Assembly: GCA_042408965.1 (NCBI GenBank)
Contig: JBHOQN010000026.1
Coordinates: 1,662 to 65,661, forward strand
DNA length: 64,000 nucleotides
Direction: 5' to 3'
From: Ktedonobacteraceae bacterium
GTDB lineage: Bacteria; Chloroflexota; Ktedonobacteria; Ktedonobacterales; Ktedonobacteraceae
Positions 24,969 to 41,344 of this stretch are shown piece after piece. The translations under genes were made by a program, and so were the position numbers. The first letter of the stretch is position 1. Every line of letters begins with the position of its first letter. Below the pieces are notes generated by a model that had not been told where the DNA came from, did no database searches, and was given only the letters and a program-made list of their open reading frames with translations.

Positions 24969-25044
24969 TCTCCCTCGCTGCGTCACTCTTCACTGATCCC
25001 TGATCTTCTACTGTGCTCGTGAGAAGAGAAAGGAATGGTTGACT

Positions 25045-27381
25045 ATGGGTATTGCTGCTCTGGTTGGTACGCCGATTAAGCGGCGTGAGGACCCCCGCCT
25101 GATTACCGGTCAGGCCACCTACGTTGATGATATCAAGCTCCCTGGCATGCTCTACATGGCTGTGTTGCGCAGTCCCTATGGTCATGCGCGCATTCACAGC
25201 ATCAACACAGAGGCTGCGAAGCAGGCACCGGGCGTTGTGGCGGTGTACACGGCTGAGGATCTGAAGGGGGTCGTCGGACATATCCCGGTGGCTGCGCCCC
25301 TCCCGCCTCACATTACGAATGGCATGGGCCGGCGTGGTCCGCTGGCTGAAGGTAAGGTGCGTTTCTATGGCGACCCACTGGCGGTGGTGATCGCCGATGG
25401 CCGCTATGCCGCGCGCGATGCGCTCGATCTGATCGACGTTGACTACGAGCCTCTACCGGCTGTTGTCGATGCTGAGAAGGCTGCTCAGCCCGATGCTCCG
25501 CTGCTCTATGAGGAGTTTGGTACGAACGTCGCGCTCTCCATGCGTCCTCCTACCGATGAGATCGACAGGGTCTTCGAGGAGACCAGGGCCAGCGGTGGCA
25601 TTGTGGTCAAGCAGCGCATGGTTAATCACCGCCTGGCGCCCTCGCCGATGGAGACGCGCGGGGTGGTGGCCGAGTTCCGCAAGGCCGATCGCCAGTTGAC
25701 CGTCTGGAGTTCCTCGCAGATCCCTCATCTGCTGCGCAACTATCTCGCCGAGCAATTGGGACTCCCTCTGCATCAGGTGCGTGTGGTGGTCCCCGAAGTA
25801 GGTGGTGGCTTCGGTTGCAAGCTCAATATCTACCCTGAGGAGGCCCTGGCCGCCTTTGCGGCCATGAAGACCGGTCGCCCGGTCAAATGGATCGAGGATC
25901 GCAGTGAGAACCTGGCGGTGACCATCCATGGCCGTGATCAGGTTGACTATGTGGAAGTGGCGGCCACTCGTGAAGGGAAGATCACCGGCCTGAAGGTACA
26001 CGTCGTCTCCGATCTGGGCGCCTATCTGCAATTCTTCACTGACGTCATCGCCATCGCCTTTACGCTGCCGATGATCTGCGGCTGCTACGACATTCCTGCG
26101 GCCTATGGGAGCTGCGATATTGTCTTTACCAACAAGGCTCCCACTGATGCCTATCGCGGCGCCGGTCGCCCCGAGGCTGCCTACCTGGTGGAGCGGGCGG
26201 TTGATCTGGTGGCCCACGAGCTGGGCAAGGACCCTGCTGAGGTGCGCCTGCTCAATTTTGTCAAGCCGGAGCAGTTCCCGCACAAGATGCCCACGGGGGC
26301 GGTCTATGACAGCGGCAACTATCACGCGGCGCTGGAGAAGGCGCTGCAGCTCGCCGATTATAAGAATCTCCGTGCTGAGCAGGAGCGTAAGCGAGCGCAG
26401 GGCAAGCTGATGGGCATTGGCATCTCCTCCTACGTAGAGATCTGCGGCATTGGTCCCAAGGGAACCACCCCCTTCGGCCTCTACGAGAGTGCCCGTGTGC
26501 GCGTGGACCAGAGTGGCGATGTGCTGATCTATACAGGCTCCTCGCCGCATGGCCAGGGTGAAGAAACCACGTTTGCCCAGATCGCCGCCGAGGAGTTTGG
26601 CATCCCGGTCGATCGCGTCCTGGTGCTCCATGGCGATACTGACTCGACCCCTGAGGGACGTGGCACCTATGGCAGCCGTACCACGGCGGTCGGTGGCAGC
26701 GCCGTCTACAATGCTGTCCAGAAGCTCAAGGAGAAGATGAAGCAGATCGCGGCCCATATGCTGGAGGCCAGCGCCGAGGATGTGACCCTCGAGGATGGCA
26801 AGTTCCTCGTTGCCGGAGCCCCGCAGAAAGCTGTCACGTTCGCCGAGGTGGCGACGGCGGCCAATCTCTCGAACACACTGCCGCCTGGCATTGAGCCGGG
26901 ACTGGAAACAACGGTCTTCTTCGAGCCGGAAGCCTGTACCTTCCCCTTCGGCACGCATATCTGCGTCGTCGAGATCGACAAAGATACTGGCGAGGTGCAC
27001 ATTGTGCGCTATGTCGCCGTTGACGATTGTGGACGTCAGCTCAACCCCCTGCTCGTGGCGGGTCAGGTCCACGGTGGCATTGTCCAGGGCGTCGGTCAGG
27101 CTCTTATGGAGGGGATCGTCTACGACGAAAGTGGTCAATTGCTCACCTCCTCGTTCATGGACTATGCCATGCCGCTGGCCTCGGAGCTGCCCTCGTTCGA
27201 GCTGGATCATACGGTGACTCTGACGCCCGTCAATCCGCTGGGAGTGAAGGGCGTTGGCGAGGCTGGCACGATTGCGGCCACTCCGGCGGTCGCCAGCGCT
27301 GTGGCTGATGCGCTGGGGGTGGCGCACATCGATATTCCCTTTACGCCGGAGCGGATCTACCAGGCCATCCACCAGGCATGA
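25045..27381 (+). CDS. coxL: Molybdenum hydroxylase large subunit, form II CoxL-like (xanthine dehydrogenase family)
   Basis: RREDPRLITG, GGGFG, AYRGAGRPEA, QVHGGIVQGVGQAL and GVKGVGE motifs; loop is the form II type, not AYRCSFR. Confidence 0.9.
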   Translation: MGIAALVGTPIKRREDPRLITGQATYVDDIKLPGMLYMAVLRSPYGHARIHSINTEAAKQAPGVVAVYTAEDLKGVVGHIPVAAPLPPHITNGMGRRGPLAEGKVRFYGDPLAVVIADGRYAARDALDLIDVDYEPLPAVVDAEKAAQPDAPLLYEEFGTNVALSMRPPTDEIDRVFEETRASGGIVVKQRMVNHRLAPSPMETRGVVAEFRKADRQLTVWSSSQIPHLLRNYLAEQLGLPLHQVRVVVPEVGGGFGCKLNIYPEEALAAFAAMKTGRPVKWIEDRSENLAVTIHGRDQVDYVEVAATREGKITGLKVHVVSDLGAYLQFFTDVIAIAFTLPMICGCYDIPAAYGSCDIVFTNKAPTDAYRGAGRPEAAYLVERAVDLVAHELGKDPAEVRLLNFVKPEQFPHKMPTGAVYDSGNYHAALEKALQLADYKNLRAEQERKRAQGKLMGIGISSYVEICGIGPKGTTPFGLYESARVRVDQSGDVLIYTGSSPHGQGEETTFAQIAAEEFGIPVDRVLVLHGDTDSTPEGRGTYGSRTTAVGGSAVYNAVQKLKEKMKQIAAHMLEASAEDVTLEDGKFLVAGAPQKAVTFAEVATAANLSNTLPPGIEPGLETTVFFEPEACTFPFGTHICVVEIDKDTGEVHIVRYVAVDDCGRQLNPLLVAGQVHGGIVQGVGQALMEGIVYDESGQLLTSSFMDYAMPLASELPSFELDHTVTLTPVNPLGVKGVGEAGTIAATPAVASAVADALGVAHIDIPFTPERIYQAIHQA

Positions 27382-27481
27382 GTGGAGAACGGATCGGGTG
27401 AGCGCTGTTCCAGGGCGCTCGCCCTGATCTCGCGCATGCCCTCACGCTCTGTCAAGCACACGAAGAGGAGGATTCGTTTCT

Positions 27482-28351
27482 ATGATCCCAGCAGCATTCG
27501 AGTACCATCCCGCCACCTCTGTGGATGAAGCGATTGCGCTGCTCTCGCAGTACGGCGACGACGCCAAGCTCCTGGCGGGTGGCCATAGCCTTATTCCGAC
27601 GATGAAGCTGCGTCTGGCGCAACCGGCGCACTTGATTGATATTGGCAGAATCTCTGGCCTCGCCTATATCCGCGAAGAGAACGGGGCGATTGCGCTCGGT
27701 GCCCTGACGACCTATGTGACTATCGAGCGCTCGGATCTGCTGCGGCGCCACTTCGCGCTGCTTCCTGAGTGCGCCGCTCTGATCGGCGATCCTCAGGTGC
27801 GCAACCGCGGCACGATTGGTGGGAGCATCTCGCATGCCGATCCCTCCGCCGATATGCCAGGGGTGGTGCGGGCGCTCAGGGCGGAGATCCGTGTGCGCGG
27901 GCCCAACGGCGAGCGCACGCTGAACGCTGACGATTTCTTCCTGGGCACCTTTACGACGGCGCTGGAGCCTGGCGAGATCGTCACTGAGATTCGCCTGCCC
28001 CTGCCGCCGGCCCGCACGGGAAGTGCCTACACCAAGCTGGCAAACAAAGCCTCTCACTATGCTGTGGCCGGTTGTGCGGCGCTGATCTCGCTCGGCGGCG
28101 ACGGCACCTGCGAAGCGGCCAGCGTGGTCATCACCGGGGCAGCCACCATGCCGACGCGCGCCTCGGCCGTCGAGGCGGCTCTGCAGGGCAGACAGCTCAG
28201 CGAGTCGGTGGTCGCGGAGGCGGCCGCCCGGGCCGCTGATGGATTGGAGCTGATGGAGGATATCCACGGCTCGAAAGCTTATCGCGCCCAGATGGCTGGT
28301 GTCATGGCCCGCCGCGCCATTCTCAGAGCCCTGGAGCGCGCACAGGGCTAG
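27482..28351 (+). CDS. coxM: Molybdenum hydroxylase FAD subunit (CoxM/CutM-like)
   Basis: LAGGHSLIP, QVRNRGTIGGSISHADP motifs. Confidence 0.93.
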   Translation: MIPAAFEYHPATSVDEAIALLSQYGDDAKLLAGGHSLIPTMKLRLAQPAHLIDIGRISGLAYIREENGAIALGALTTYVTIERSDLLRRHFALLPECAALIGDPQVRNRGTIGGSISHADPSADMPGVVRALRAEIRVRGPNGERTLNADDFFLGTFTTALEPGEIVTEIRLPLPPARTGSAYTKLANKASHYAVAGCAALISLGGDGTCEAASVVITGAATMPTRASAVEAALQGRQLSESVVAEAAARAADGLELMEDIHGSKAYRAQMAGVMARRAILRALERAQG

Positions 28352-28459
28352 CCTGTTACGTCAGAGCTGGAGCGGGGAGTGGCTTCACTCGGCGCGGCTG
28401 CGTCGGGGCCGAGGGTGCTGCCCGCTCTGGCGTTGCACGGGGATCTTTTGCGGCTGACT

Positions 28460-29296
28460 TCAGAGATCGAGGCGGTAGAGACGGCGCGCTGTTTCGCGCC
28501 AGAGCTGGGCCCGTTCGTAAGCGCTCAGGCTGGCGGTCGCCATGTGCAGCAACCTGACCCCCTCGATGTAGGAGGCGCTCAGCGTGCTGACGGGCCAGTC
28601 GCTGGCAAAGAGGAGGCGGTCGGCGTCAAAAAGAGCCAGGGCTGCCTCCACATAGGTCTGCAGTGTCTCCGGGCGCAGCGGCGGAGGCTCGGCGAGCGAG
28701 ACATAGGCAGAGAACTTCATCACAACGTTGGGCTGCGCGGCCAGGGGCGCCAGGCGCTCCTGCCATGCCTGCACACCGTCGGGAACCAGCGGCAGTCCTG
28801 CCAGGTGATCGATGACAAACTGGGTCCGCTCTTGCGCGGCGATCAGTGCGATGGCTCGCTCCAGCGTCGCTCCATCGATGAGCAGGTCACAGGACAGGCC
28901 CTGGGCGGCCAGGATGTTCAACCCTGGGCGTAGCTGCTCCCAGTCCTGCTCTGGCGAGAGCGTGGGGCGTACTCCTTTGAAGAGGGGCTGCTCCTGCAGG
29001 CGAGCCAGGATCTCGTCTAGATCGGGGGCCCTCAGATCGACCCAGCCAACCACGCCTTTGATGTGCGGATAGCGTGCAGCCAGCGTCAGCAGCCAGGCGG
29101 TCTCGTCCAGCGAGCTGTCTGCCTGAATGAGGACGCTGTAGCGCACGCCCACCTCCTCCATCTGCGGCAGGACCTCTTCCGGCAGATAGTCGCGGTTAAG
29201 GACTGGCTCGTTAACCTGTCGATGCCACTGGTACTCAAAGCGTGCAAGCTGCCAGCAGTGCTGGTGAGCATCGACGGCTGTCTCTGGCTCGCCCAT
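28460..29296 (-). CDS. Amidohydrolase_2 family protein (L-fuconolactonase-like)
   Basis: DAHQHCW, GVVGWVDL, VIDHLAG, VMKFSA and LFASDWP motifs. Confidence 0.88.
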   Translation of the reverse strand: MGEPETAVDAHQHCWQLARFEYQWHRQVNEPVLNRDYLPEEVLPQMEEVGVRYSVLIQADSSLDETAWLLTLAARYPHIKGVVGWVDLRAPDLDEILARLQEQPLFKGVRPTLSPEQDWEQLRPGLNILAAQGLSCDLLIDGATLERAIALIAAQERTQFVIDHLAGLPLVPDGVQAWQERLAPLAAQPNVVMKFSAYVSLAEPPPLRPETLQTYVEAALALFDADRLLFASDWPVSTLSASYIEGVRLLHMATASLSAYERAQLWRETARRLYRLDL

Positions 29297-29337
29297 CACC
29301 TTCCTCCTTGCTCAGGTTCCTCCTGGCTACGGCGCCG

Positions 29338-29733
29338 TCAATGTCCGTGATGTCCACTGTCAACGCTGGTATGCGAGATATGGGAGGGATGCGAGGACGG
29401 CGCATGATGGCTGATGCTAGAATGCTGCTGGTGGTGCGTGTGAGACGGACCGGAGCTATGGCCTGCTTTGCGCCCTTCTATGGCGTGCTCTGGCGTCGGA
29501 GCATGACGGTGGTGGCTGTGATGCTGGCCGGCCGTTCGTACAGAACCTCTTGCATCGTCTGTCGAGTCGCCAGCCATGTCTGCCAGGGCCTCACCGCTCA
29601 GCTCACCTCCGCTGCGGCTGTGTCGCGGTCGCTGTGGGCCTTTGCTGGCCCTCCGATTGCTCAGGCCAACGATGAGGCTGATCAGCAGGATGAGCAGGAG
29701 AAGAAAGGCGAATCCTCCGATGAGAAAAAGCAT
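29338..29733 (-). CDS. Small single-TM protein with His/Ser-rich C-terminal tail
   Basis: GGAGG RBS; N-terminal TM; tail with many His residues (...SHTHHQQHSSISHHAPSSHPSHISH...GHHGH). Confidence 0.6.
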   Translation of the reverse strand: MLFLIGGFAFLLLLILLISLIVGLSNRRASKGPQRPRHSRSGGELSGEALADMAGDSTDDARGSVRTAGQHHSHHRHAPTPEHAIEGRKAGHSSGPSHTHHQQHSSISHHAPSSHPSHISHTSVDSGHHGH

Positions 29734-30281
29734 GGGCGCGGCACCTCCTCTCTGGGAAAGATAGGGTTATAGACGCATCTGGTAGTCTACCACACTCAGC
29801 GTGAAAGTGTAAATAGTGGAAGACGTAGTCTCAGAGAGGGCAGAAGCCGAGGGTGCCGAGCCTGCGGCCCTGCTGGAGCAGGTGATCATCGGTTCCGCGC
29901 TCGGGAAGAGCGCCGGGGCCACGCCGTCTCCCCTGCCGGGCGCCACCTTCCCCAGGGATGGCCCGACTCTTCCTCGCCGGGTGGCGCACACCTGGCCGGG
30001 CGTCACCCTCCCGAGCGGGCCCCTCCTGCGGCGACCCTGCCGCGAGGCTCGACAGGTGCCAGAAGCAACGCCAGGGTCCTGCTGGCCGGCCGCCGCGCTA
30101 CCTGGAAGACCTGGAGGCGCTCACGGGAGTCTGCCAGTTCGGGGTCGCTTGGACACCCTTGACCGCACGTGCTCCCGATGCTATCGTCAAGGGGGCTCTT
30201 ATCAGCATGCAGCGCACGCCTGATTGGGGATGGAAACGTCATTACAAGCGTGCTGGACAGAAACTACAAGAGGTACAAAAC

Positions 30282-31391
30282 ATGTATGATATTCGGATCG
30301 AGCGCTGGGCACGGACGATCGTCGCCTACTGTCTGCAGGTGAATGCTGGGCAGACCGTGGCGCTGCAGGCGTCGCCGCTGGCCCAGCCGCTGATTGAGGC
30401 GGTCTATCATGAGCTTCTGACCGTGGGGGCCTATCCGCTGCCGTTGATCTCTCTCGATAGCCTCGATGAGATGCTTTTGCGAGAGGGCAGCGCTGACCAG
30501 TTGCGCCATGTGCCCTTGCTGCTGGAGGGCTTTGCGGATCGCGTCGATGCACGTCTGGCCATCGGCGCGGCGGCCAATACCCGTGCCCTGAGCAGCATCG
30601 ATCCTGAACGCCTGGCGCTTCGCCACGAGGCCCAGGGCCGGCTGAGGCAGCGCCTGCAGTCGCGAGAACCAGAGAAGGCGGACCAGCATCGCTGGTGTCT
30701 GACGCTCTATCCGACCCAGGGCTATGCCCAGGATGCTGGCATGTCGCTGCACGAATTTGAGGAGTTTGTCTTTGAGGCCTGTTTCCTCAACGATGCTGAT
30801 CCGGCGGCTCGCTGGCAGGAGCTCTCGGGACAGCAGCAGCGCCTGGTGGACTGGCTGAACGGGCGTCGCAGCGTGCACGTGCGCGCAGAGGGAACCGACC
30901 TCAGGCTCTCGATTGAGGGACGGCGCTTTATCAACAGCGATGGCCGTCGTAACTTTCCCAGTGGAGAGGTCTTTACCAGTCCTGTGGAGGAGAGCCTCGA
31001 GGGAGAGATCACCTTTGATGTGCCCTCCTCAGTGGGCGGGCGTGCCGTTGAGGGGGTGCATCTGGTCTTTGAGCGTGGCAGAGTGGTGGAGGCCAGCGCA
31101 CAGCAGGGAGGCGACTATCTGGAGCGCATGCTCCATCTCGACGAGCGGGCCTGCTACGCTGGTGAGTTCGCCTTTGGCAATAACTGGCGGATTCAGCGGC
31201 CCACGCGCCATATTCTCTTTGATGAGAAGATTGGTGGTACGATCCACCTGGCCCTCGGCGCCAGCTATCCCGAAGCCGGGGGCCTCAATCGCTCGGCGCT
31301 GCACTGGGATCTGATCTGCGATCTGCGCAAGGGTGGCGAGGTGCTGGTTGACGACGTGCTCTTCCTGAAGGATGGGAAGATCCTGGTCTGA
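30282..31391 (+). CDS. Aminopeptidase, peptidase M29 (AmpT/PepS family)
   Basis: NFPSGEVFTSP, GEFAFGNN, LFDEKIGGTIHLALG and SALHWDLI motifs; start MYDIR after AGAGG; TTGACC-17-TATCGT promoter at 30159-30187. Confidence 0.92.
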   Translation: MYDIRIERWARTIVAYCLQVNAGQTVALQASPLAQPLIEAVYHELLTVGAYPLPLISLDSLDEMLLREGSADQLRHVPLLLEGFADRVDARLAIGAAANTRALSSIDPERLALRHEAQGRLRQRLQSREPEKADQHRWCLTLYPTQGYAQDAGMSLHEFEEFVFEACFLNDADPAARWQELSGQQQRLVDWLNGRRSVHVRAEGTDLRLSIEGRRFINSDGRRNFPSGEVFTSPVEESLEGEITFDVPSSVGGRAVEGVHLVFERGRVVEASAQQGGDYLERMLHLDERACYAGEFAFGNNWRIQRPTRHILFDEKIGGTIHLALGASYPEAGGLNRSALHWDLICDLRKGGEVLVDDVLFLKDGKILV

Positions 31392-31420
31392 GAGGCCGCC
31401 TCGCTGGCTGGAGGCGAGCT

Positions 31421-31467
31421 AGGAAGGTCCCGCCGTTACTTACGCACGGGCTAGCCGGGACCTTCCT
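31421..31467. terminator. Bidirectional terminator between convergent genes
   Basis: AGGAAGGTCCCG / CGGGACCTTCCT, 12-bp perfect inverted repeat. Confidence 0.7.
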
Positions 31468-31487
31468 GACGCTCTTGCTGAGTTCGC

Positions 31488-32444
31488 TCAGGCTGACTTC
31501 AAATACGGGGAGAGTTTGAGGATCTGTCGGCGCACCACAGGACGCAGCAGCGGCATCAGCGTACGGATCGGGGCTGGCGGACCAGCGTACTGCGCCACGT
31601 CGCGAATGATCTCTTCAAAAGAGTGGCGCTGATACTGCAGCAGGCGCTGACTCTCTTCGGTGTCCAGCCAGTCGGTGCAATAGGGATCGTGCCCGAAGGC
31701 CTGCTCTGGTAGATGGCCCACGCCCATCACCTCCAGCATGCGCTCGAGGTAGTCGCGGTAGCGCACCTGGCACGAGGGACCACCGCCGATCAGCCAGATT
31801 CTGCCCCAGATCTCCTCGCGGACGATGCCGTTGGCCACGGCCAGCCCGGCATCATAGGTGTGCAACATCTCCAGGCGGGTATCGAGCGGGATACGGTACA
31901 TGATAGGATGGATCGGGCGCGGCCCCAGGGGAGGCACGTCGGCGAAGCGAAAGATCGACCAGGTCAGGCCGGAACGCCTCAGGAGCTCCTCGCCTTCCAG
32001 CTTGTGGCGGCTGTAATCGTCGGTGGCCTGGACAGGATCAGTGACCTTGCGCGGTGGTGGCTGATCCTGCGTATGCCCAAAGACATCCAGGCTGGAGCTA
32101 AAGAGAAAGCGTGGCGGCTGTGGCTGCTGGCGCGCGAGGTCGATGATCGTGCGTGTGCCGAGCAAGTTGACCTCGTAGGCGAGCTGCGGATGGTCGTCGG
32201 ACTCCGGCGGAAGGATCGCTGCCAGGTGTACCACGACCTCCTGGTCCTGGAGGGCAGCAGCGACTGTCTCCGCCTGACGTATATCACCCCAGTGGATCTC
32301 GACCTGGCCAGCGACCTGCCGCGCCTTCTTCTCGTTTCGCGGATTTTTGATGTCGAAACAGCGTACGCGATGTCCCTGGCGAATGAGTTCCTGAACGGCG
32401 CTGAAACCGATATTGCCGAACGCACCGGTCAGTACAACCCTCAT
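31488..32444 (-). CDS. NAD-dependent epimerase/dehydratase (extended SDR)
   Basis: TGAFGNIG, VHLAA, N..GT, SSS and YSRHK motifs. Confidence 0.9.
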   Translation of the reverse strand: MRVVLTGAFGNIGFSAVQELIRQGHRVRCFDIKNPRNEKKARQVAGQVEIHWGDIRQAETVAAALQDQEVVVHLAAILPPESDDHPQLAYEVNLLGTRTIIDLARQQPQPPRFLFSSSLDVFGHTQDQPPPRKVTDPVQATDDYSRHKLEGEELLRRSGLTWSIFRFADVPPLGPRPIHPIMYRIPLDTRLEMLHTYDAGLAVANGIVREEIWGRIWLIGGGPSCQVRYRDYLERMLEVMGVGHLPEQAFGHDPYCTDWLDTEESQRLLQYQRHSFEEIIRDVAQYAGPPAPIRTLMPLLRPVVRRQILKLSPYLKSA

Positions 32445-32510
32445 ACATGACTCCTTCTCAAATGAGCTTGCGCGTAGGTGTGAAAGCCTCTCGCTGCATG
32501 GATCTTTGTA

Positions 32511-33533
32511 TTACTGCAGGGGAGAGGAACGGCCCGCTCGACTTGCCCGCTCGCTGAGATGCTGGATTTCGGGGAGCAGAGGATCAAGCGGAGTTCCTGT
32601 CGCCTGGGTAAACACGACGGGGGTCTGCTGAAGACGGGCACGCTGTAACTGCCGTCCGACGTAGTTCACGGCCATCTGCGTGCGTTCCAGCAGTTCTGCC
32701 TTCCATTTCCATTCCTGGGCGTGGTTGAGCAGGTTGTTGAGGGGAACGGCGATCTGCCAGAGGACCCCCTCCTGTCCTGGGGGTACACGCGCCTCCAGGT
32801 TCCCATTGGCCACAGCGGCGTGTACCTGGGCGATGACGGTGATGCCCTCTTCGAGCTGGCGCTGCTCCTGAGCGCGCTGACGCTGGAACTCGGCGATCTC
32901 TTTCTGTAATGCGATGATTTCTTCTGCGCGATCTGCTCGGCGAATGGTGGCGATAAGATAGCGCATGATAACGTAGGTGATAATGCCTACAATCAGTTGG
33001 AGCGCGATCGGCAGCGCGACCATGATCGAGCCGTAGCCCAGGCTGATCCAGCGATCATACTCGGCCGTGTGATGCTGGAAGAGGGTTAAGAGAACAATAA
33101 CCAGACAATTGAAGAAGCTCGTCACCAGGGAGGCGACGGGCGGCATCAGTGCGCCGGAGAGCACTACGGGAATAACGAGCGCGCTGAAGATTCCGATGTA
33201 GACGGGGTCGAGCGGATTGGTAATCAGGTTCCCGACTGAGTTGATGACCGCGTTCATAACCAGCAGGGCGGCGGCGGTAATATTCAACCCCCAGCGATTC
33301 ATGAGGGGGGAAGCCAGGGCGCAGAGAAACGCTGTGCCCTCGATCCAGGGCGCGATCCGGTTGATCGAGGTCAGCGCGCCATAAACGAACGCCAGCAGAC
33401 TCAGGGGGACTATGACCAGAGCGAACATGCTGGTGAGACGCGCATAGCGCGCACGTTCGCGCTCAGCCGGCGTTGTTTCTGGCAGATGCCTGGGGAGGGT
33501 CAGGCCGTACCACCAGGCAAGCAGGGATTTCAT
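32511..33533 (-). CDS. Multi-TM membrane protein with cytoplasmic coiled coil and HAMP-like segment, no output domain
   Basis: 6-7 TM segments, then RRADRAEEIIALQ...AVANGNLEARVP...IAVPLNNLL. Confidence 0.7.
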   Translation of the reverse strand: MKSLLAWWYGLTLPRHLPETTPAERERARYARLTSMFALVIVPLSLLAFVYGALTSINRIAPWIEGTAFLCALASPLMNRWGLNITAAALLVMNAVINSVGNLITNPLDPVYIGIFSALVIPVVLSGALMPPVASLVTSFFNCLVIVLLTLFQHHTAEYDRWISLGYGSIMVALPIALQLIVGIITYVIMRYLIATIRRADRAEEIIALQKEIAEFQRQRAQEQRQLEEGITVIAQVHAAVANGNLEARVPPGQEGVLWQIAVPLNNLLNHAQEWKWKAELLERTQMAVNYVGRQLQRARLQQTPVVFTQATGTPLDPLLPEIQHLSERASRAGRSSPLQ

Positions 33534-33557
33534 AGGGTCCTCCGTCTTCGCTGAGAT

Positions 33558-34082
33558 TTAACTAATCACACCAAGGGTGCGCAGAGTGGTCAGGGCCTCC
33601 TCGACGACAGCCGGCGACAGGTTGAGCTGTGCTTTGATCTGCTCGACTGTGCGCTCTCCATTGACCATCGTAAAGACCAGACGCAAGACCAGGCGCTGTT
33701 TCATGGTGAAGCTGTTGAGCAGATGGGCGTCCAGAGGCCTGAGCTGTCTTGGAGCCTGAGAAAAGGCTGGTGGAGCAGGACTACTGGCCTCTGGAAGCGA
33801 GGGCTGTATCAGCGAGTGCAGGACGTGCTCGACGTCGGGCTGGATACGTACCTGCCATTGGTCTCTGGCGCGCAATGTGGCATACGCATCGGCTCCGCTG
33901 GCGAGGATCATCCCGCTCGGAGTCTGAATCAGGCATTCGAGCACGGTGCCCTCCTTGAGGAAGATCACGCCCCGGCAGGGTTCACGCAGGGCAGGCACGT
34001 TCACTGATGTCGAGAGAATCGCGGATTGCCCTTGCAGATAGTCCAGAAGTGTTTGCAGATCAAGATAATATACCTTATCCAT
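33558..34082 (-). CDS. Hypothetical protein: PATAN/DUF4388-like N-domain plus C-terminal winged HTH
   Basis: RGVIFLKEGTVLECLI; C-terminus VFTMVNGERTVEQIKAQLNLSPAVVEEALTTLRTLGVI. Confidence 0.65.
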   Translation of the reverse strand: MDKVYYLDLQTLLDYLQGQSAILSTSVNVPALREPCRGVIFLKEGTVLECLIQTPSGMILASGADAYATLRARDQWQVRIQPDVEHVLHSLIQPSLPEASSPAPPAFSQAPRQLRPLDAHLLNSFTMKQRLVLRLVFTMVNGERTVEQIKAQLNLSPAVVEEALTTLRTLGVIS

Positions 34083-34814
34083 GAGAGTATATCGTCCTGC
34101 TCGTTTTAGTAGGAAGACAGCGCTGTCTGGCTCCTTACTTTCGATGATTCTGGGTAGGTCTGGCTGGTGTATTCCAGTATGCATTCAGGCCTTCTGGTAG
34201 TCCGTCGGTGGGGGGTCTTCTGAGCAGGGCGTTTCCCCCGGTAGTCACTGCTCCCCCCGCGATTCCGTGACAACTATTCTATCATGAAGATCAATGAAAA
34301 GTACATAGAAAACGTGTAAAGATAGCTCACTGGTAATGGGTTCCGGCACTCAGCCGTTCAGAACGCTGCCGAGCTGTCTCTGCATTCGTTACGTAGTAAT
34401 CGCTTTGGGCCATCTTTTAAGAGAAGGAATGTATTTCTTGCGATGAGGCTCACTGAAGGTTCTCCGCTGCCGTTGGGCCAGGTGCGGAATCGCCGCTTGT
34501 AAGGCTTGCTTTTCCTTGAGAGCAACTATAATGGCTATATTGTATTACCATCTGCGGGGGAATCTGCAAGGACCTGCTGGCTCGACGCGATAGCGACGTC
34601 CTGGCAGTGCAGTGCTGCTCTCATTTCTGCTGTACGGCCTGTTCCCCTCCAGTCTCGAGGGGCGCTCCTTCGAGCGCAGGAGAGACAGCGCATCGCTCTG
34701 GCTGATTGCTTCCTGGAGACCAGACTGCTGGCCGGTCTGGCTGGTAGGCGACCGATGCTGATGCGGCCCTGTCCTTCCAGATACTCTCTGGCAAAACCTG
34801 TGTGTGCACTTTAA

Positions 34815-36005
34815 CAATCGTGCCGGAAGTCCCCTAGTTGTAGCTATGGGGATGGATAGGCACGATTTTTTAAACAGCGATTGCACACTGGATAAAAATA
34901 TGCGATACTCTCTTGTGTGAGAAAGACATACCAGTATCGGATGTATCCGACGAAGCAACAACTGAAGATGCTTGAAACCACGCTTGAGGAATGCCGTTGG
35001 TTGTATAACAACACGCTGGCATACCGCAAAGAGGCATGGGAGCGGAAGCGACGTTCGGTTTCTCGCTACGATGCACAAGCACGTATTCCTCTGCTGAAAG
35101 TGGAACGCCCTTCTCTTAAAACGGTTTATTCACAAGTCTTGCAAAACGTCAACGAGCGTGTAGAGCTTGCTTTTCAAGGGTTCTTTAGACGGGTCAAGCA
35201 GGGCGAAAACCCTGGGTATCCTCGTTTCAAAGGCCAGGGCCGCTACGATAGTTTCACCTATACGCAATCGGGGTTTTTCTTGACGCATAATCACCGCGTG
35301 TGCCTCTCCAAGATCGGGAGTATCAGGCTCGTGTATCACAGACCAATTCAGGGCAAGATCAACACGCTCACGATCCATCGTTCCTCTACTGGCAAGTGGT
35401 ACGCATCTTTCTCTGTCGAATACGATCCCGAACGCTTGCCGGACAATCCCTCTCGGGTCGGCATGGACGTGGGGCTCAACACCTTTGCGACACTGTCCGA
35501 TGGAACGAACATTGAGCACCCTCGTTTCTTCAGGAAAGAAGAAAAAGCACTGGCCAGGGTTCAACGCACGCAGTCCAAACGTGCGAAAGGGTCTCCTGAA
35601 CGGCGCAAGCATCGCAAAGCGGTCGCCCGTGTGCATGAACGCATCCAGTTCAGGCGTTCCAATTTCACCCATCAGAACAGCCATCGCATCGTTGCTCAAC
35701 ACGGCGCCATCTGCGTGGAAGACGTGCACGTCAATCGCATGATGCATAACCATTGTCTGGCAAAGAGTCTTGCTGATGCAGCATGGAGTCAATTCTTTAA
35801 GCAACTGGCGCACAAAGCGGAAGAGGCTGGTCGCCAGTTGCTCACAGTCAACCCTGCATACACCAGCCAGACCTGTAATCAGTGTGGGCATCGGCAAAAG
35901 ATGCCTCTTGCTGAAAGGGTATTCGCTTGTCCATGCTGTGGGTTGCATATGGACCGTGACCTCAACGCTGCTAAAAACATCCTTGGATTGGGACTACAAT
36001 CCTTG
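34815..36005 (+). mobile_element. IS200/IS605-family, tnpB-only (IS1341-type) element; left end present, right end missing
   Basis: Subterminal hairpin TCCCCTAGTTGTAGCTATGGGGA (34830-34852) preceded by TTTAA (34810-34814); internal promoter TTGCAC-17-GATACT; lower GC than the host; no tnpA. Confidence 0.75.
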
Positions 36006-36020
36006 GGAATAAATAGCTAA
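34917..36020 (+). CDS. tnpB: TnpB RNA-guided endonuclease (IS200/605 type)
   Basis: RKTYQYRMYPT N-terminus; RuvC motifs GMDVG, VED and DRDLNAA; Zn finger CNQC...CPCC; stop codon lies inside the next element. Confidence 0.93.
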   Translation: MRKTYQYRMYPTKQQLKMLETTLEECRWLYNNTLAYRKEAWERKRRSVSRYDAQARIPLLKVERPSLKTVYSQVLQNVNERVELAFQGFFRRVKQGENPGYPRFKGQGRYDSFTYTQSGFFLTHNHRVCLSKIGSIRLVYHRPIQGKINTLTIHRSSTGKWYASFSVEYDPERLPDNPSRVGMDVGLNTFATLSDGTNIEHPRFFRKEEKALARVQRTQSKRAKGSPERRKHRKAVARVHERIQFRRSNFTHQNSHRIVAQHGAICVEDVHVNRMMHNHCLAKSLADAAWSQFFKQLAHKAEEAGRQLLTVNPAYTSQTCNQCGHRQKMPLAERVFACPCCGLHMDRDLNAAKNILGLGLQSLGINS

Positions 36021-36066
36021 ACAAAGTGTTGACATCTATGGGCGTTTGTGCTATTTTAGCACCTCA

Positions 36067-36192
36067 ATGGCAAGTCGCATCTCTGGGCGCAGGCCTTCAA
36101 AGAGACGCGCCGAACAGATCAAACAGTATGTTGAGCGCGTGATGAAGGAAGGCGGATGGCACTCGTTGTACGTGGCTACAAACCTGAGCTAG
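36067..36192 (+). pseudogene. tnpA: C-terminal remnant of IS607 serine recombinase TnpA (MASRISGRRPSKRRAEQIKQYVERVMKEG...)
   Basis: Resembles the IS607 TnpA C-terminal 'ARLYGRRSxKxxxxxxxxxxxx' helix; overlaps the tnpB start as in IS607; catalytic and HTH domains absent. Confidence 0.6.
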
Positions 36193-37386
36193 ACCTGAAC
36201 AACCAGCAACGTACCGCTTGCTTGAAACATACGGGTTGTGCTCGCTTTGCCTACAATTGGGGGCTGGCGCGCGCTCAGGAGGTCTACTGTGCAAACGGGC
36301 AAGCGTCCCCATGCCATCCAGCTGCATCGGGAGCTCAATGCTCTGAAGAAGACCGACTTCCCCTGGATGTACGAGGTATCTAAGTGTGCGCCCCAGGAAG
36401 CCTTGCGTGATCTTGACCGTGCCTACGCCAACTGCTTCCGCCGCCTGGAACTGAGCAAGCAAGGCCGATGGAAAGGCCAGCTCGGTTTCCCGACATGCAA
36501 GAAGAAAAGCAAAGGCATCGGTTCCTTCCGCCTGACGGGAAGCATCCCTATCTTTGCCGAGAGCATCCAGTTGCCACGGTTGGGCCGTCTTCGCTTGCAT
36601 GAGCATGGCTACCTTCCTACGAATGCAAAGGTGCTTTCCGCAACCGTCTCAGAGGAGGCGGGACGCTGGTTGGTGAGTGTCCTGGTGGAGGAGGAGCAGG
36701 AAGCCCCGGCCCATCCAGCTCCGGCTGCTGTTGGCGTTGACCTTGGTATCAAAACGCTTGCCACGCTTTCCGATGGCACGACGTTTGAGAACCCACGTGC
36801 CTTGAAGCATGCTCAAAAAAGGTTGAGGCGCTTAGAGCGGCAAAAGTCCCGGCGTGTCAAAGGGAGCAAGAACCGCATGAAGACGGTGAGGAAGCTGGCA
36901 AAGCAACATGCGCGTGTTGCTCGCATCCGCAAAGACGATATCCACACGTTGACAAGCTATCTGTGCAACAACCACGCACTGGTAGCGATAGAGGACGTGC
37001 ACGTGTCCGGTCTGCTCAAGAACCACCGGCTTGCTCAGGCCATTGCCGATAGCAGCTTTGGGGAGATCAGGCGGCAACTCACCTCCAAGGCCCAACGCTA
37101 TGGGACACGCCTTGTGGTGATTGACCGTTTCTACCCCTCAAGCAAAACCTGCTCTGCTTGCGGATACGTCAAGCCTGCGTTGGGGCTGCATGAGCGGACG
37201 TTGGTGTGTGAGGCTTGCGGCATGGTGCTGGATCGTGACCACAATGCCGCCATCAACTTGCTGCGTGAAGCAGTAAGAACGACCGGCAGTTCGTCGGGAC
37301 GTGACGCCTGTGGACAGAGGAGCTCTGGCCGTCTCATGGGAGACGGTGAAACTGCTCTGGATGAAGCAGGAACCAACCATCGTTGA
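36156..37386 (+). pseudogene. tnpB: IS607-type TnpB with a +1 frameshift near 36293-36295
   Basis: N-terminus MALVVRGYKPELDLNNQQ...ARFAYNWGL is in one frame; the rest (GKRPHAIQLH..., GVDLG, IED, DRDHNAA, CSAC/CEAC) is in another; one extra A in GCA-A-ACG joins them. Confidence 0.8.
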
Positions 37387-37440
37387 GGCATGTCCTCACT
37401 GTCTAAGTGTTGGAGAACGGTCTACAACGAGGATCAGCAG
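37275..37440 (+). ncRNA. Putative omegaRNA/reRNA of the IS607 TnpB (scaffold overlaps tnpB 3' end; guide would be TCTACAACGAGGATCAGCAG)
   Basis: Stem CCGTCTC/GAGACGG (37329-37346) and flanking complementary segments; ends at the element right end; position is standard for TnpB omegaRNAs. 5' boundary is a guess. Confidence 0.55.
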
Positions 37441-37497
37441 TCGCAGGACGAGGTCGGGGCGCTCTTCTCCGATTTCCGCTATACGCCACTCTCATAG
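37420..37497 (+). pseudogene. Orphan 3' tail of a host gene (VYNEDQQSQDEVGALFSDFRYTPLS*)
   Basis: Host-like GC3-rich codons starting exactly at the IS607 GG, TAG stop, then a terminator hairpin; no matching 5' part seen upstream. Confidence 0.5.
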
Positions 37498-37505
37498 AGA
37501 TGGCT

Positions 37506-37530
37506 GCGTCTCCCCCCTGAGGGGAGGCGC
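37506..37530 (+). terminator. Hairpin GCGTCTCCCC-CCTGA-GGGGAGGCGC
   Basis: 10-bp stem (one G-U pair) directly after the orphan tail. Confidence 0.55.
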
Positions 37531-37539
37531 GTCGCTTCC

Positions 37540-37569
37540 TTGACGCTGTCCCGCCCGGCGGCGTAGAAT
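37540..37569 (+). promoter_or_regulatory. sigmaA-type promoter of the coxD-coxE-xdhC cluster
   Basis: TTGACG-18bp-TAGAAT. Confidence 0.6.
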
Positions 37570-37725
37570 AGGAGAGACCACAATAGCGACCCTGTGCCTG
37601 CTCGCCTGTTCACTCATACACAGGGCACGCTCTGGCCTCTCTCTGCCCGCCCGTCTCGCTCAGCGCGATGGCCCGGGTGGGTGGTGTCAGCGCGTGATAG
37701 TTTGCTTATGATCTGGAGGCTCTCG

Positions 37726-38646
37726 TTGAACCAGGAACAGCAATCACTGGTCATTCCATTCTCTTCCATTGAAGATGTGCAACGGGCGATGTTCGCCCGG
37801 CGCTATGTAGCAGATCGCAGCCTGGCCACAGCCGTGTTCCTGGCACTCAAACGACGTAAGCCGCTGCTGCTGGAGGGCGAACCGGGCGTTGGCAAGACGG
37901 AGGTCGCCAAGGTCCTGGCCGACCTGCTGGAGACGCGCCTCATTCGCCTGCAGTGCTATGAAGGTATCGATGTCAGTACGGCGGTGTATGAGTGGAATTA
38001 CACGCGCCAGATGTTGCATATTCGCCTGATGGAGGCCAGAGAGACCTCTCGCCAGGAGGAACTCAAGGAGATCTTCGGGCCGGATTTTCTCATCAAGCGT
38101 CCGCTGTTGCAGGCCATCGATCCGGCGAATGCCAGGGCCCCTGTCTTGCTGATCGACGAGCTGGATCGCAGCGATGAGGAGTTCGAGGCCTATCTACTGG
38201 AGCTGCTCTCGGACTTTCAGATCACCATTCCTGAGATTGGCACGGTGGCCGCCGGAGAGCCGCCCGTGGTGGTGATTACCTCGAATCGCACGCGCGAGAT
38301 CCATGATGCCCTGCGCCGGCGCTGTCTCTATTACTGGATCGACTATCCAACGCTCGACAAGGAATACTCGATTGTACTGGCGCGTATGCCAGAGGTGCCT
38401 GAGCGTCTGGCGAAGCAGGTCTGTGTCTTCGTGCGTGAGCTGCGTGCGCTCGATCTCTTTAAGGCTCCAGGCGTGGCCGAGACCCTTGACTGGATTGCCT
38501 CGCTACTGGCGCTCGATCAGATGGAGCTGGTTGAGGGAGCGGTGCGCGATACACTGGGCGCCCTCCTGAAGTATCAGGACGACGTGCTGAAGGTTGGTGG
38601 CAACGATCTTGGCAAACTCGTGCAAAAAGCGCGCAGCGCTGGTTGA
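37726..38646 (+). CDS. coxD: MoxR-type AAA+ ATPase, CoxD-like
   Basis: GEPGVGKT, RLQCYEGID, LLIDELDRSDEEFEA and TSNRTRE motifs; TTG start after GGAGG. Confidence 0.9.
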   Translation: MNQEQQSLVIPFSSIEDVQRAMFARRYVADRSLATAVFLALKRRKPLLLEGEPGVGKTEVAKVLADLLETRLIRLQCYEGIDVSTAVYEWNYTRQMLHIRLMEARETSRQEELKEIFGPDFLIKRPLLQAIDPANARAPVLLIDELDRSDEEFEAYLLELLSDFQITIPEIGTVAAGEPPVVVITSNRTREIHDALRRRCLYYWIDYPTLDKEYSIVLARMPEVPERLAKQVCVFVRELRALDLFKAPGVAETLDWIASLLALDQMELVEGAVRDTLGALLKYQDDVLKVGGNDLGKLVQKARSAG

Positions 38647-40073
38647 TGGCTATGCTGGCAGAGAATTTTGATGCGCATGAGTATGCGCCCCTCCCCGATC
38701 GCGAGCCCGATGAGGCCCTCCTGTCCTCTCAGCACGATGGCCACGCGCCCTCCGCTGCTGCGCGCCAGGCGCCACTCACCCAGAAGGAGCTTGAGCGCGG
38801 CGAGCGTCTGCTCTATCGCCTGACTGAGTTCGGCCATCTTCTCTGGGAGTCGGGGATCGACGTGGGACCACAGAAGCTGCTCGATCTGGCTGAAACCCTC
38901 GACTATATTGATATTACCGAGCCCGCAGACTTCTACAACGCGCTCAAGTGCTCGTTGCTGGCCCGCCACGAGCAGGAGACACTCTTCAATCAGCTCTTCA
39001 ATTACTACTGGCTCACGCGCGATCGTAAAGATCGACCGGCTGATCCAGGCGCCACGCGGCGCGATGATCGCCAGGTGCGCCTCCCGCCATCTGAGCGCAA
39101 GCGCCTGGCAGAGCACCTGAATGCCGATCACCAGCAGCGTGAGATGCGTGCCAGTGGGCGTGAGAGCGAGCGGCGTCATGCGCTCGATGAGCAGGCGGGC
39201 GAGCGTGACGATGATCAGGCGCCGCCTCAGGGAACGGCCTACAGTGCCCTCGAATTGCTGCGCAAGAAGGACTTTGACTCCTTCACCTGGGAGGAGGTCC
39301 AGGAGGCCAGGCGTCTCATGAGCGAGATGCACTGGAATCTGGGGCTGCGTCCCACGCGCCGCAAGCGCCCGACGCGCGTTGGCGACTACCCCGATATGCG
39401 GCGCATCGTGCGGCGCAATCTCAAGTACGGCGCTGAGCTGCTCGAACTGACCTGGCGTGAGAACAAGCAGAAGCCGCGTCCGCTGGTGATCATCTGCGAC
39501 ATCAGCGGCTCGATGAGTCTCTATTCACGGCTGCTGCTCCACTTTATTCATACCATCTCCAATGGCCTGCTCAATGTGGAGGCCTTCGTCTTCGGAACAC
39601 GACTGACGCGCATCACGCGGCAGCTCAAACGGCGCGACGTAGATGATGCTGTGCGCGAAGTCTCGCGCTCGGTGCAGGACTGGTCAGGTGGCACGCGCAT
39701 CGGCGATGCCCTGCATACCTTCAATCAGCAGTGGGCCAGGCGCGTGCTGGGTCGAGGCGCCGTGGTGCTGATCATCAGCGATGGTTGGGATCGCGGTGAT
39801 GCCGCGGTCTTGCAGGTCGGAATGGATCGTCTGCAGCATAGCTGCCATCGCCTGATCTGGCTCAATCCCCTGCTCGGCTCGCCAGATTATCGTCCGCTGA
39901 CGATTGGCATGAAGACGGCGCTCCCCTACATCGACGATTTCCTGCCAGCCCACAACCTGGATAGCTTGATCCAGCTTGGCAAGCTGCTGGAAAATATTGA
40001 CGATCGGCGACCTGCGCGCACACCGGCTGCGCGTCGTGAAGCGATCAAGGCCTGGACGCGAGCTGCTCCCTGA
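38646..40073 (+). CDS. coxE: VWA-domain protein, CoxE-like
   Basis: MIDAS DISGSM, FVFGTRLTRIT, WSGGTRIG, SDGWDRG and WLNPL motifs; ATG overlaps the coxD stop. Confidence 0.9.
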   Translation: MAMLAENFDAHEYAPLPDREPDEALLSSQHDGHAPSAAARQAPLTQKELERGERLLYRLTEFGHLLWESGIDVGPQKLLDLAETLDYIDITEPADFYNALKCSLLARHEQETLFNQLFNYYWLTRDRKDRPADPGATRRDDRQVRLPPSERKRLAEHLNADHQQREMRASGRESERRHALDEQAGERDDDQAPPQGTAYSALELLRKKDFDSFTWEEVQEARRLMSEMHWNLGLRPTRRKRPTRVGDYPDMRRIVRRNLKYGAELLELTWRENKQKPRPLVIICDISGSMSLYSRLLLHFIHTISNGLLNVEAFVFGTRLTRITRQLKRRDVDDAVREVSRSVQDWSGGTRIGDALHTFNQQWARRVLGRGAVVLIISDGWDRGDAAVLQVGMDRLQHSCHRLIWLNPLLGSPDYRPLTIGMKTALPYIDDFLPAHNLDSLIQLGKLLENIDDRRPARTPAARREAIKAWTRAAP

Positions 40074-40198
40074 CGCATGGCGGGCAGATCCACCAGCGTG
40101 GAGGGAGGGTCTTCCCCGCTGGTGGAGCGAGGCTGCCGCCGCATCTGCCTGCCGAATGTCACCCGGTACAAGTTCCTGAGGATCTGGAGGTATTCCCT

Positions 40199-40516
40199 AT
40201 GCGTGATATTCTGCCCGATGTTGAGCGCTGGCGCACGCAGGGCGAGCGTGTCGCTGTGGCCACGGTGGTCTCCGTGGCAGGATCAGCGCCGCGCCGGCCT
40301 GGTGCCCGGTTGGCTGTCAGCGAGAAAGGTGAGATCAGCGGCTCTGTCAGCGGCGGCTGCGTGGAGCCTGCCGTTGTCGAGGCTGCTCTGCAGGTCATCA
40401 AGGATGGTCGGCCGCAGATGCTCGAGTTTGGCATCAGCGAGGAGGAGAATTTTGAGAAGATCGGCCTGGCCTGTGGGGGCACTATTCATGTCTTTGTCGA
40501 GCGCCTCGACTGGTAG
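40199..40516 (+). CDS. XdhC/CoxI N-terminal domain protein
   Basis: GSAPRRPGA, GSVSGGCVE and GLACGG motifs. Confidence 0.88.
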   Translation: MRDILPDVERWRTQGERVAVATVVSVAGSAPRRPGARLAVSEKGEISGSVSGGCVEPAVVEAALQVIKDGRPQMLEFGISEEENFEKIGLACGGTIHVFVERLDW

Positions 40517-40576
40517 GGAGGTAGCCAGACACGATAGGAGACGAGCAGCGCCTTATACTCAGGCAGGAGGAACACG

Positions 40577-41344
40577 ATGAGTGGATTGTATGAGGAGTTC
40601 AAGCAGCAGCTTGCGCGCGAGCAGGGAGTAGCTCTGGCCACTCTGGTGCGCGGACCCGATCAGGAGCAGGTCGGCGCGAAGCTGCTGGTCTTCCCCGATA
40701 AGAGCTTTCGCGGCACGCTGGGCGACACCGAGCTAGATGCGCGCGTGGCTGAGGATGCCGAACGGGCGATCTGGATCGGTGAACCAGGGACGCGCACCTA
40801 TACTCTGGCCGCGCAGCATTTCGACGTCTTTATTGAGGGCTTTCCGCCGCCGCCGCGCCTGATTATTGTCGGCGCTGGCCACATTGCCATTCCCCTGACC
40901 ACCTTTGCCAGGACCCTGGGCTATCGCGTCATTGTGATCGATGCCCGTGCGGCCTTTGCCACCCGCGAGCGCTTTCCTCATGCCGATGAGTTGATTGTGG
41001 CTTGGCCGGATGAAGTCCTCGAACAGCTTGATCTCAATCCTTCGACGGCCGTTGCTGTGCTGACGCACGACCCTAAATTTGATGAGCCATCGCTGAAGGT
41101 GGTCCTCTCACGGCGTGTCGGCTACGTGGGGGCCATCGGTAGCCGTAAGACCAGTCAGGAGCGCAGTGAACGTCTCAAGAAGCAGGGCCTCACGGATGAG
41201 CAACTCAGCCGCATTCACGCACCCATCGGCCTCAATATCGGGGCGACTTCCCCCGAGGAGATGGCGCTGGCCATCATGGCGGAGATCGTCGCAACGCGCT
41301 ATGCGAAGGACCGGGCGGCCATCCTGGACTGGTCGCAGAAATAA
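40577..41344 (+). CDS. xdhC: XdhC/CoxF family Moco-insertion chaperone (CoxI-like plus Rossmann domain)
   Basis: GAGHIA, VIDAR, LTHDPKFD, YVGAIGSR and PIGLNIGATSPEEMALAIMAEI motifs. Confidence 0.9.
   Translation: MSGLYEEFKQQLAREQGVALATLVRGPDQEQVGAKLLVFPDKSFRGTLGDTELDARVAEDAERAIWIGEPGTRTYTLAAQHFDVFIEGFPPPPRLIIVGAGHIAIPLTTFARTLGYRVIVIDARAAFATRERFPHADELIVAWPDEVLEQLDLNPSTAVAVLTHDPKFDEPSLKVVLSRRVGYVGAIGSRKTSQERSERLKKQGLTDEQLSRIHAPIGLNIGATSPEEMALAIMAEIVATRYAKDRAAILDWSQK

Follow-up and report, generated by a model that had tools for sequence, protein, structure and literature searches.

A truncated IS605/IS1341-type element abutted by a decayed IS607-type element in a hot-spring Thermogemmatispora: a probable case of nesting, rearrangement and decay

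The window considered throughout is a 64,000-nucleotide stretch of DNA from a Ktedonobacteraceae bacterium (GenBank assembly GCA_042408965.1, contig JBHOQN010000026.1, positions 1,662 to 65,661 of the forward strand), the host of the locus being a hot-spring Thermogemmatispora. Two genes for TnpB, an RNA-guided transposon nuclease, lie there in tandem: tnpB1, within an element of the IS200/IS605 type, and tnpB2, within an IS607-type element that follows directly and spans 36008-37420. On present evidence the pair most probably (about 85%) represents two unrelated and now non-autonomous insertion sequences (ISs) that have piled up by nesting, have since been rearranged and are decaying, with no working hybrid between them; as a unit the locus appears to be without function. 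The original prediction, made from the sequence alone, had regarded the tandem as a meaningful chimeric element, a single transcription unit and a natural test of guide-RNA scaffold swapping or co-mobilisation, a proposal that fell on the finding of a single, non-recurrent locus subject to neutral drift, with unrelated scaffolds and no mobilising route.

The junction and the missing right end

The relatives of tnpB1 were represented by 81 loci (80 metagenomic loci plus L002) with products 66-81% identical to TnpB1. A 70-nt tail, ...CTTGCnGTGGGACTACAnnGCnTCGGTAnCCAATCCGTAGAAGCCCC-loop-GGGGAGTAGTCAC, recurs in 51 distinct relatives, and beyond it their flanks diverge; the family right end can be written as ...GCCCC-N-GGGGAGTAGTCAC, and analysis with RNAalifold indicated that the tail forms two covarying hairpins. 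The terminal covarying hairpin and its invariant AGTAGTCAC terminus, present in 30 relatives (alignment A4), are not found in the window, which keeps the first hairpin only (GGATTGGGACTACAATCC), the tnpB1 element ending ...CAATCCTTGG(G), or ...GGGACTACAATCCTTGG(G), at 36007, i.e. as CCTTGG(G). An nhmmer profile of the 51 family right ends matched the window at positions 1-27 of 70 only (35982-36008), and positions 28-70 were absent from the whole 64 kb, including the DNA directly after the IS607 right end. The original observation that tnpB1 is without its own right-end hairpin and guide-RNA 3' end thus stands: what is missing is the final ~43-47 nt of the right end typical of the family, reading ...TA(T)CCAATCCGTAGAAGCCCC...GGGGAGTAGTCAC. 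A segment at 37495-37535 (CCCCCCTGAGGGGAGG) was considered as the lost remainder on the basis of a vague resemblance, gave no profile score, and was dropped.

The same truncation removed the native C-terminal ~13-17 codons of tnpB1, which are replaced by I-N-S-stop from the IS607 left end; the final 4 codons of the frame and its stop come from there (~36008 onward), the TAA stop codon at 36018-36020 lying within IS607 left-end sequence (AATAGCTAAAC), as had been supposed. Homologues of 369-385 aa extend beyond ...QSLG, and the residues lost from TnpB1 lie past the part of the protein for which solved TnpB structures give an alignment.

Homology to the tnpB1 family stops, and homology to IS607 left ends starts, at CCTTGGG (36001-36007), and in IS607-type relatives a GGG occurs at a similar distance upstream of a conserved AATAGCTAAA motif. 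TGGG/GG is the experimentally demonstrated target and transposon-associated motif (TAM) of an IS607-family TnpA_S/TnpB pair, whose scaffold ends ...UCGG (bioRxiv 10.1101/2023.11.20.567912). Since the homology switch sits at this known IS607 target, the left junction has the appearance of a genuine insertion, made by the transposase, in the older element's right end. The sequence past 37420 is TCTACAACGAGG..., and because the tnpB1 right-end remainder does not follow the IS607 right end, a simple nested insertion does not fit and a second rearrangement is needed. Of the nesting originally proposed, the junction formed by an authentic IS607 left end is retained, and the simple insertion is not.

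Three independent assemblies support the junction, which is consequently taken as real. A metagenome contig of the Joint Genome Institute (JGI; L001) from another strain, carrying the same chimera, is collinear and gap-free with the window over 24941-37153 at 99.65% identity, and includes both junctions together with an extra A in tnpB2; in Logan contigs of two other hot-spring runs the stretches 35701-36182 and 35983-36133 are crossed with zero differences. Contig L166, in addition, covers the junction between the right end and its flank at 100% identity.

Comparison of the window with strain L001, based on codon changes in both tnpB genes and in seven flanking host genes, gave ratios of non-synonymous to synonymous changes of 8:2 for tnpB1 and 7:1 for tnpB2, as against 4:13 for the seven host genes (Fisher p versus host genes = 0.007 for tnpB1, 0.007 for tnpB2 and 0.0006 combined). 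Substitution density was ~1% in the tnpB genes and 0.21% in the host genes. This approximately neutral rate, with mostly non-synonymous changes, argues that neither tnpB has recently been under purifying selection, and both appear to have drifted neutrally since the divergence of the two sampled strains.

The chimera was seen at one locus only, where it is single-copy, while the IS607 element is multi-copy: read depth over the IS607 region was 27-95 compared with ~13 in the flanks (2-7x), and that of tnpB1 was near flank depth. Among RNA-seq runs, none was found to contain the locus. No second copy of either element was present within the window, a protein search returned no second TnpB1-like copy more than 83% identical, and exact-sequence look-ups of TnpB1, P0003 and P0129 found no record. 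A second TnpB was encoded within the fetched flanks of none of the 81 tnpB1-family loci and of 5 of 82 tnpB2-family loci. A scan of species-representative genomes yielded 80 relatives of tnpB2 beyond L003 and L004. That scan lacked the source species, its best match being 79% identical (T. tikiterensis), and other copies of the IS607 element were visible through one JGI metagenome (L003 and L004). Mapping of such further copies, a check recommended at the outset, defined the element ends from the family loci and from these two sister copies.

Anatomy of the two elements

The features of the locus, all on the forward strand, are collected in the table.

Table 1. Coordinates of the features of the tandem tnpB locus and the evidence for each
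Feature	Position in window	Strand	Evidence
Target/TAM-like motif TTTAAC, directly 5' of the tnpB1 element	34810..34815	+	Alignment of 60 family left ends
IS605/IS1341-type left end: subterminal hairpin and conserved promoter-like region before tnpB1	34816..34916	+	Inverted repeat I7, fold, conservation
tnpB1, uninterrupted IS605-type TnpB, 367 aa	34917..36020	+	Pfam, motif positions, ISDra2 match, homologues
Last retained guide-RNA/right-end piece of the tnpB1 element, stem GGATTGGGACTACAATCC	35982..36007	+	nhmmer, alignment A4
TGGG, IS607 integration site (GG core) at the element-element junction	36004..36007	+	Homology boundaries
IS607-type left end with promoter	36008..36058	+	Alignment to L018/L029/L067/L013, promoter scan
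tnpA stub, serine recombinase, last ~42 codons (open reading frame 36046-36192)	36059..36192	+	tblastn, pairwise alignment blocks
tnpB2, IS607-type TnpB, +1 frameshift	36156..37386	+	Pfam on both halves, sister copies, homologues
Guide-RNA (omegaRNA/reRNA) scaffold and right end, ending ...GGAGAACGG	37236..37420	+	Covariation, RAGATH-18 match, boundary
Flank, would-be 20-nt guide of the IS607-type RNA (TCTACAACGAGGATCAGCAG)	37421..37440	+	Divergent flanks

TnpB1 carries the Pfam domains HTH_OrfB_IS605, OrfB_IS605 and Cas12f1-like_TNB (PF12323, PF01385 and PF07282), all above cut-off, and matched ISDra2 TnpB with 197 bits (E = 3.5e-57). The three RuvC acids reported for it were confirmed by motif position (D184, E268 and D346/D348, in GMD184VG, CVE268DV and MD346RD348LN); the CxxC pairs of its zinc ribbon lie at 320 and 338. 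Its start codon is GTG where the family has ATG (…GTGAGA… versus …ATGAGA…), which accounts for the JGI gene call in the sister strain beginning 8 codons later. The IS605 left end next to a TAM-like TTTAA-type motif was likewise verified: the position of TTTAAC is occupied in relatives by TTTAGC, TTTACC or TTAAC followed by a conserved left end, homology between the window and the sequence upstream of the relatives' genes starts at 34816, and the single-stranded DNA hairpin at 34810-34873 has a folding energy of -15.2 kcal/mol (z = -4.55). Elements of the IS200/IS605 family have no terminal inverted repeats, and their target doubles as the TAM. The left end and tnpB1 are no more than ~100 nt apart, which makes the family tnpB-only; when the flanks at the 81 family loci were screened crudely for motifs, a procedure that cannot prove absence, no open reading frame for an HUH (Y1) transposase was found. 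Assignment to the tnpB-only IS1341 group would fit, with mobilisation in trans. The window copy possesses a TnpB with a RuvC-like domain and zinc ribbon, as well as a left-end hairpin 3' of a short target, and lacks both a right-end hairpin with its terminus and a Y1 (HUH) TnpA; it is a truncated member of the IS200/IS605 family. As it stands, tnpB1 is an open reading frame with catalytic motifs, devoid of a cognate guide RNA in cis and of a route to mobilisation.

The promoter claimed for the IS607 part consists of a -35 TTGACA (36029-36034), a 17-nt spacer and a TG-extended -10 TATTTT (36052-36057), scored 10/12, and proved to be the best promoter-like site of the region in a promoter scan. 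The left end in which it lies is conserved in relatives, whose left ends follow the pattern GG(G)-5/6 nt-AATAGCTAAAyAgAaTGTTGACAT...TGCTATTyTA-(5 nt)-ATG, window positions 36005-36057 being identical to the left end of L018 at 42 of 53 sites. After the promoter the window jumps to the TnpA codons ...ITSMASRISGRRPSKRRAEQIKQ, the gene having an internal deletion of ~0.49 kb that begins shortly ahead of its start codon and reaches about codon 155-165; the last ~42 codons, recognised from the start as a tnpA stub, match the TnpA of relatives. In many relatives the upstream reading frame encodes 198-200 aa (192-200 aa for L018 and L029), ends a few bases before tnpB and contains a Pfam Resolvase domain (PF00239, 76 bits), and is therefore an IS607-type serine transposase. 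The assignment of the tandem to two IS families, the second with serine-recombinase relatives, was accordingly sound, as was the reading of its GG junction and 20-nt guide.

The frameshift noted in tnpB2 results from a single additional A (AA->AAA, 36293-36295) that two sister copies lack, and divides the gene into a reading frame with the helix-turn-helix (HTH) domain only (36156..36383) and one of 382 aa with the remaining two domains (36238..37386). The read-through product of 409 aa, to which full-length 409-aa homologues are 84% identical, keeps D195, E279, DRD 359-361 and the zinc ribbon. It scored 174 bits against ISFba1 TnpB (8IAZ), compared with 106 bits for TnpB1; each protein gave ~200 bits against ISDra2 TnpB, and the two are 32% identical to one another. 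The element has the IS607 attributes of a serine-recombinase TnpA upstream of tnpB in its relatives, a GG core at both junctions and a TGGG target, and lacks an intact TnpB nuclease.

The closest relatives of TnpB2, 89-91% identical, are N-terminally shortened reading frames from the same JGI hot-spring metagenome. Two of the loci concerned, L003 and L004, match window positions 36122-37422 and 36056-37421, respectively, at 91-93% identity; all three copies have the same right end and three different right flanks, and the two sisters have different 5' truncations. Each bears its own disabling lesion: loss of one G in L003 (~6000-6010), TGG->TAG in L004 (2374-2376) and the additional A in the window. 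Programmed frameshifting in tnpB2 was ruled out by these three different lesions (+1, -1 and stop) in three copies. The lesions cluster in codons ~36-70 (window 36258-36369), each leaving a long reading frame from about MYEVSK, a clustering that is most likely an ascertainment effect of score-ranked protein hits. As a separate observation, L004 also contains, at 1234-2170, an unrelated TnpB-like gene truncated after its first RuvC motif and with an internal stop, fused directly to the last ~72 codons of the IS607 tnpA and the tnpB2-like copy, an intervening IS607 left end being absent; the same hot-spring organism thus has a second truncated tnpB that precedes an IS607 remnant, joined by a different type of junction.

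The IS607 right end is complete, as stated originally, its ...GGAGAACGG (...AACGG) terminus at 37420 being common to the three sister copies and ~60 relatives, with flanks that diverge thereafter. The preceding 185 nt form a scaffold in which 21 of 29 base pairs show compensatory change across a 30-sequence alignment, and contain a RAGATH-18-like core at 37307-37372 that scored 27.8 bits against Rfam RF03064, under the gathering score of 44.9; L012 scored 31.3 bits at the same position. RAGATH-18-derived RNAs are known guides of IS607 TnpBs (PMC11061315). The Ktedonobacteria/Chloroflexota guide RNAs of IS607 elements constitute a well-covarying clade (alignment A3) that reaches 27.8-31.3 bits with a RAGATH-18 model for which 44.9 is called for. 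The flank that would serve as guide (37421-37440) is unique in the window and does not continue the right end of the tnpB1 element. The most that the IS607 remnant can produce, having no nuclease in cis, is a guide RNA driven by the element's conserved promoter, and its scaffold is unrelated in sequence and structure to that of the TnpB1 family.

With regard to the surroundings, the IS pair lies between genes for carbon monoxide (CO) dehydrogenase-like subunits (Fer2, MoCoBD and FAD_binding_5; 24941-28351) and coxD/E/F-like accessory genes (MoxR ATPase, VWA_CoxE and XdhC; 37594-41344). The accessory genes of T. carboxidivorans have other upstream neighbours (DUF6585), which marks the IS site as a synteny break. 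A promoter-like TTGACG-18-TAGAAT (10/12) at 37540-37569 lies downstream of the IS607 right end and just before the MoxR/coxD-like host gene, to which it probably belongs. Elsewhere in the genus, in T. tikiterensis, a HEARO RNA (an IscB-type guide) occurs at L005:678-926 on the reverse strand, ~2 kb upstream of a tnpB2 homologue, with 99.8 bits and thus above the Rfam gathering score; several RNA-guided transposon nuclease families therefore coexist in the genus.

Order of events and competing explanations

The anatomy described above suggests the following sequence. A tnpB-only IS200/IS605-type (IS1341-like) element lay 3' of TTTAAC, as its anatomy shows. An IS607 TnpA would then have integrated its element at 5'-TGGG-3' within the first element's right end and guide-RNA region, cutting off the last ~45 nt, i.e. 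the terminal guide-RNA hairpin, the recognition hairpin of the HUH transposase and the cleavage terminus, and at the same time fusing tnpB1 to a stop codon supplied by the IS607 left end. A second event would subsequently have replaced the DNA on the right-hand side of the IS607 element, which would explain the absence of the tnpB1 right-end remainder; its likeliest routes are homologous recombination between two of the several IS607 copies of the genome or an IS607-adjacent deletion, because the IS607 element is multi-copy and the synteny shared with T. carboxidivorans does not start until 37687, past the IS pair on its right. As comparison with relatives and sister copies shows, the IS607 copy has also lost ~0.49 kb of tnpA and gained the +1 frameshift in tnpB2. 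Nested insertion followed by rearrangement and decay is frequent in IS-rich Ktedonobacteria.

Several points weigh against this interpretation. Neither an empty site nor an intermediate with an intact tnpB1 right end at the locus was found, and the ancestral empty site was not recovered via the MoxR/coxD neighbour, T. carboxidivorans being syntenic only from 37687 rightwards, so that the order of events and the replacement step are reconstructions. The case for neutral drift depends on 18 codon changes that distinguish two strains, of which one is represented by a metagenome consensus. The tnpB1 gene is still a complete reading frame with all motif residues, which is mildly unexpected for a long-dead gene and fits a recent event. 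One contig in run X1 matches the window only from 35211 onward and hints at a diverged paralogue, and an undetected paralogue of this kind could conceivably supply a cognate guide RNA in trans.

The last of these points bears on the best-placed of the alternatives, itself unlikely, whereby TnpB1 is kept as a host-serving or trans-supplied nuclease using RNA from a paralogous element elsewhere, so that the local right-end loss is irrelevant. The intact reading frame and motifs, the conserved promoter region of its own left end, the X1 contig and the position of the lost C-terminus beyond the region aligned to solved structures favour such retention, but the neutral substitution pattern, the weakening of the start codon from ATG to GTG, the want of a second copy above 83% identity in the protein search and a depth close to that of the flanks speak against it. 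A functional chimera, in which the IS607-type guide RNA serves TnpB1 or the two parts are mobilised together, draws on the same open frame and catalytic motifs, on a strong promoter before the IS607 part with no terminator-like site between the genes, and on the intact IS607 scaffold; it is nevertheless very improbable given two nucleases only 32% identical, scaffolds with no common sequence or structure, tnpB1 changes of 8:2 at about the neutral rate, a single-copy arrangement, and tandem TnpBs at 0/81 and 5/82 loci. Co-mobilisation in particular has no mechanistic basis, because the IS605 right end required by an HUH transposase is gone, while the IS607 ends enclose the second element alone and an IS607 TnpA acts on IS607 ends only. 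Equally improbable is the narrower proposal that TnpB1 has begun to use a non-cognate RNA (the downstream IS607-type scaffold or a read-through hybrid) and that its frame is open for this reason.

Two further explanations can be set aside with near certainty. Were the junction the normal end of a single composite element always containing two tnpB genes, L004, with its truncated tnpB directly before an IS607 remnant in the same organism, might be cited as a second example; its upstream gene is, however, an unrelated TnpB and its junction lies inside tnpA with no IS607 left end, each of the 81 tnpB1-family loci finishes with a right end of its own and is followed by no further tnpB, and full-length IS607 relatives begin at their left end beside unrelated host DNA. 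An assembly artefact, with misjoined repeats or a frameshift arising from sequencing error, might be suspected from the multi-copy nature of the IS607 part and from the breaking of assemblies at its ends (L001 ends at 37153 and L166 starts at 37393), but is contradicted by the gap-free JGI contig over 24941-37153 with both junctions and the extra A, by the Logan contigs of two runs that span the junction without differences, and by the perfect identity of L166 across the right-end/flank junction. Both outcomes had been named in advance as grounds for abandoning the chimera, and it was on other evidence, that of drift, copy number and scaffolds, that a working hybrid was rejected in favour of two piled-up and decaying ISs.

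Significance and comparison with known systems

Both parts are new yet ordinary members of known families, namely a tnpB-only IS1341-type IS200/IS605 element and an IS607 element with a RAGATH-18-like guide RNA, and the importance of the locus beyond annotation is little. It is best annotated as an IS605/IS1341-type element truncated at its right end plus an IS607-type element in which tnpA is deleted and tnpB frameshifted, rather than as a composite element. The junction is a clean natural case of IS607 integration at TGGG within the guide-RNA region of another element, and illustrates one RNA-guided transposon disarming another. Were TnpB1 indeed to work with a foreign RNA, the locus would be a natural guide-RNA scaffold switch following the loss of a nuclease's own scaffold, and activity with that scaffold would bear on guide-RNA changes in the TnpB and Cas12 lineages. 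Also of some minor value is the large covarying clade of IS607 guide RNAs in Ktedonobacteria, which the Rfam RAGATH-18 model barely detects.

The tnpB1 element resembles tnpB-only (IS1341-type) IS200/IS605 elements with an ISDra2-like TnpB in its three-domain protein (HTH, OrfB_IS605/RuvC and zinc ribbon) and in a left-end hairpin beside the T/A-rich TTTAAC. Its IS1341-type relatives additionally have a right-end hairpin and invariant terminus that overlap the 3' end of tnpB; unlike these elements with a right-end omegaRNA, the window copy is without its last ~45 nt, so that the guide-adjacent part of the omegaRNA is gone. The second element compares with IS607 systems that deploy a RAGATH-18-derived reRNA, such as ISFba1 TnpB (8IAZ) and the TnpA_S/TnpB of CboIStron, in its GG/TGGG left flank, in a scaffold that ends ...CGG and in the covarying 3' scaffold, and differs from them in the internal deletion of tnpA and the frameshifted tnpB. 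Chloroflexota, to which the Ktedonobacteria belong, are not among the phyla listed for RAGATH-18/IS607 in PMC11061315. Taken as a pair, the two elements resemble other nested or abutting ISs ("IS graveyards"), with an IS inside an IS, mismatched flanks, independent decay and a synteny break relative to a related species; the only oddity in comparison with the usual nested ISs is that the insertion supplies a stop codon and the outer tnpB frame stays open.

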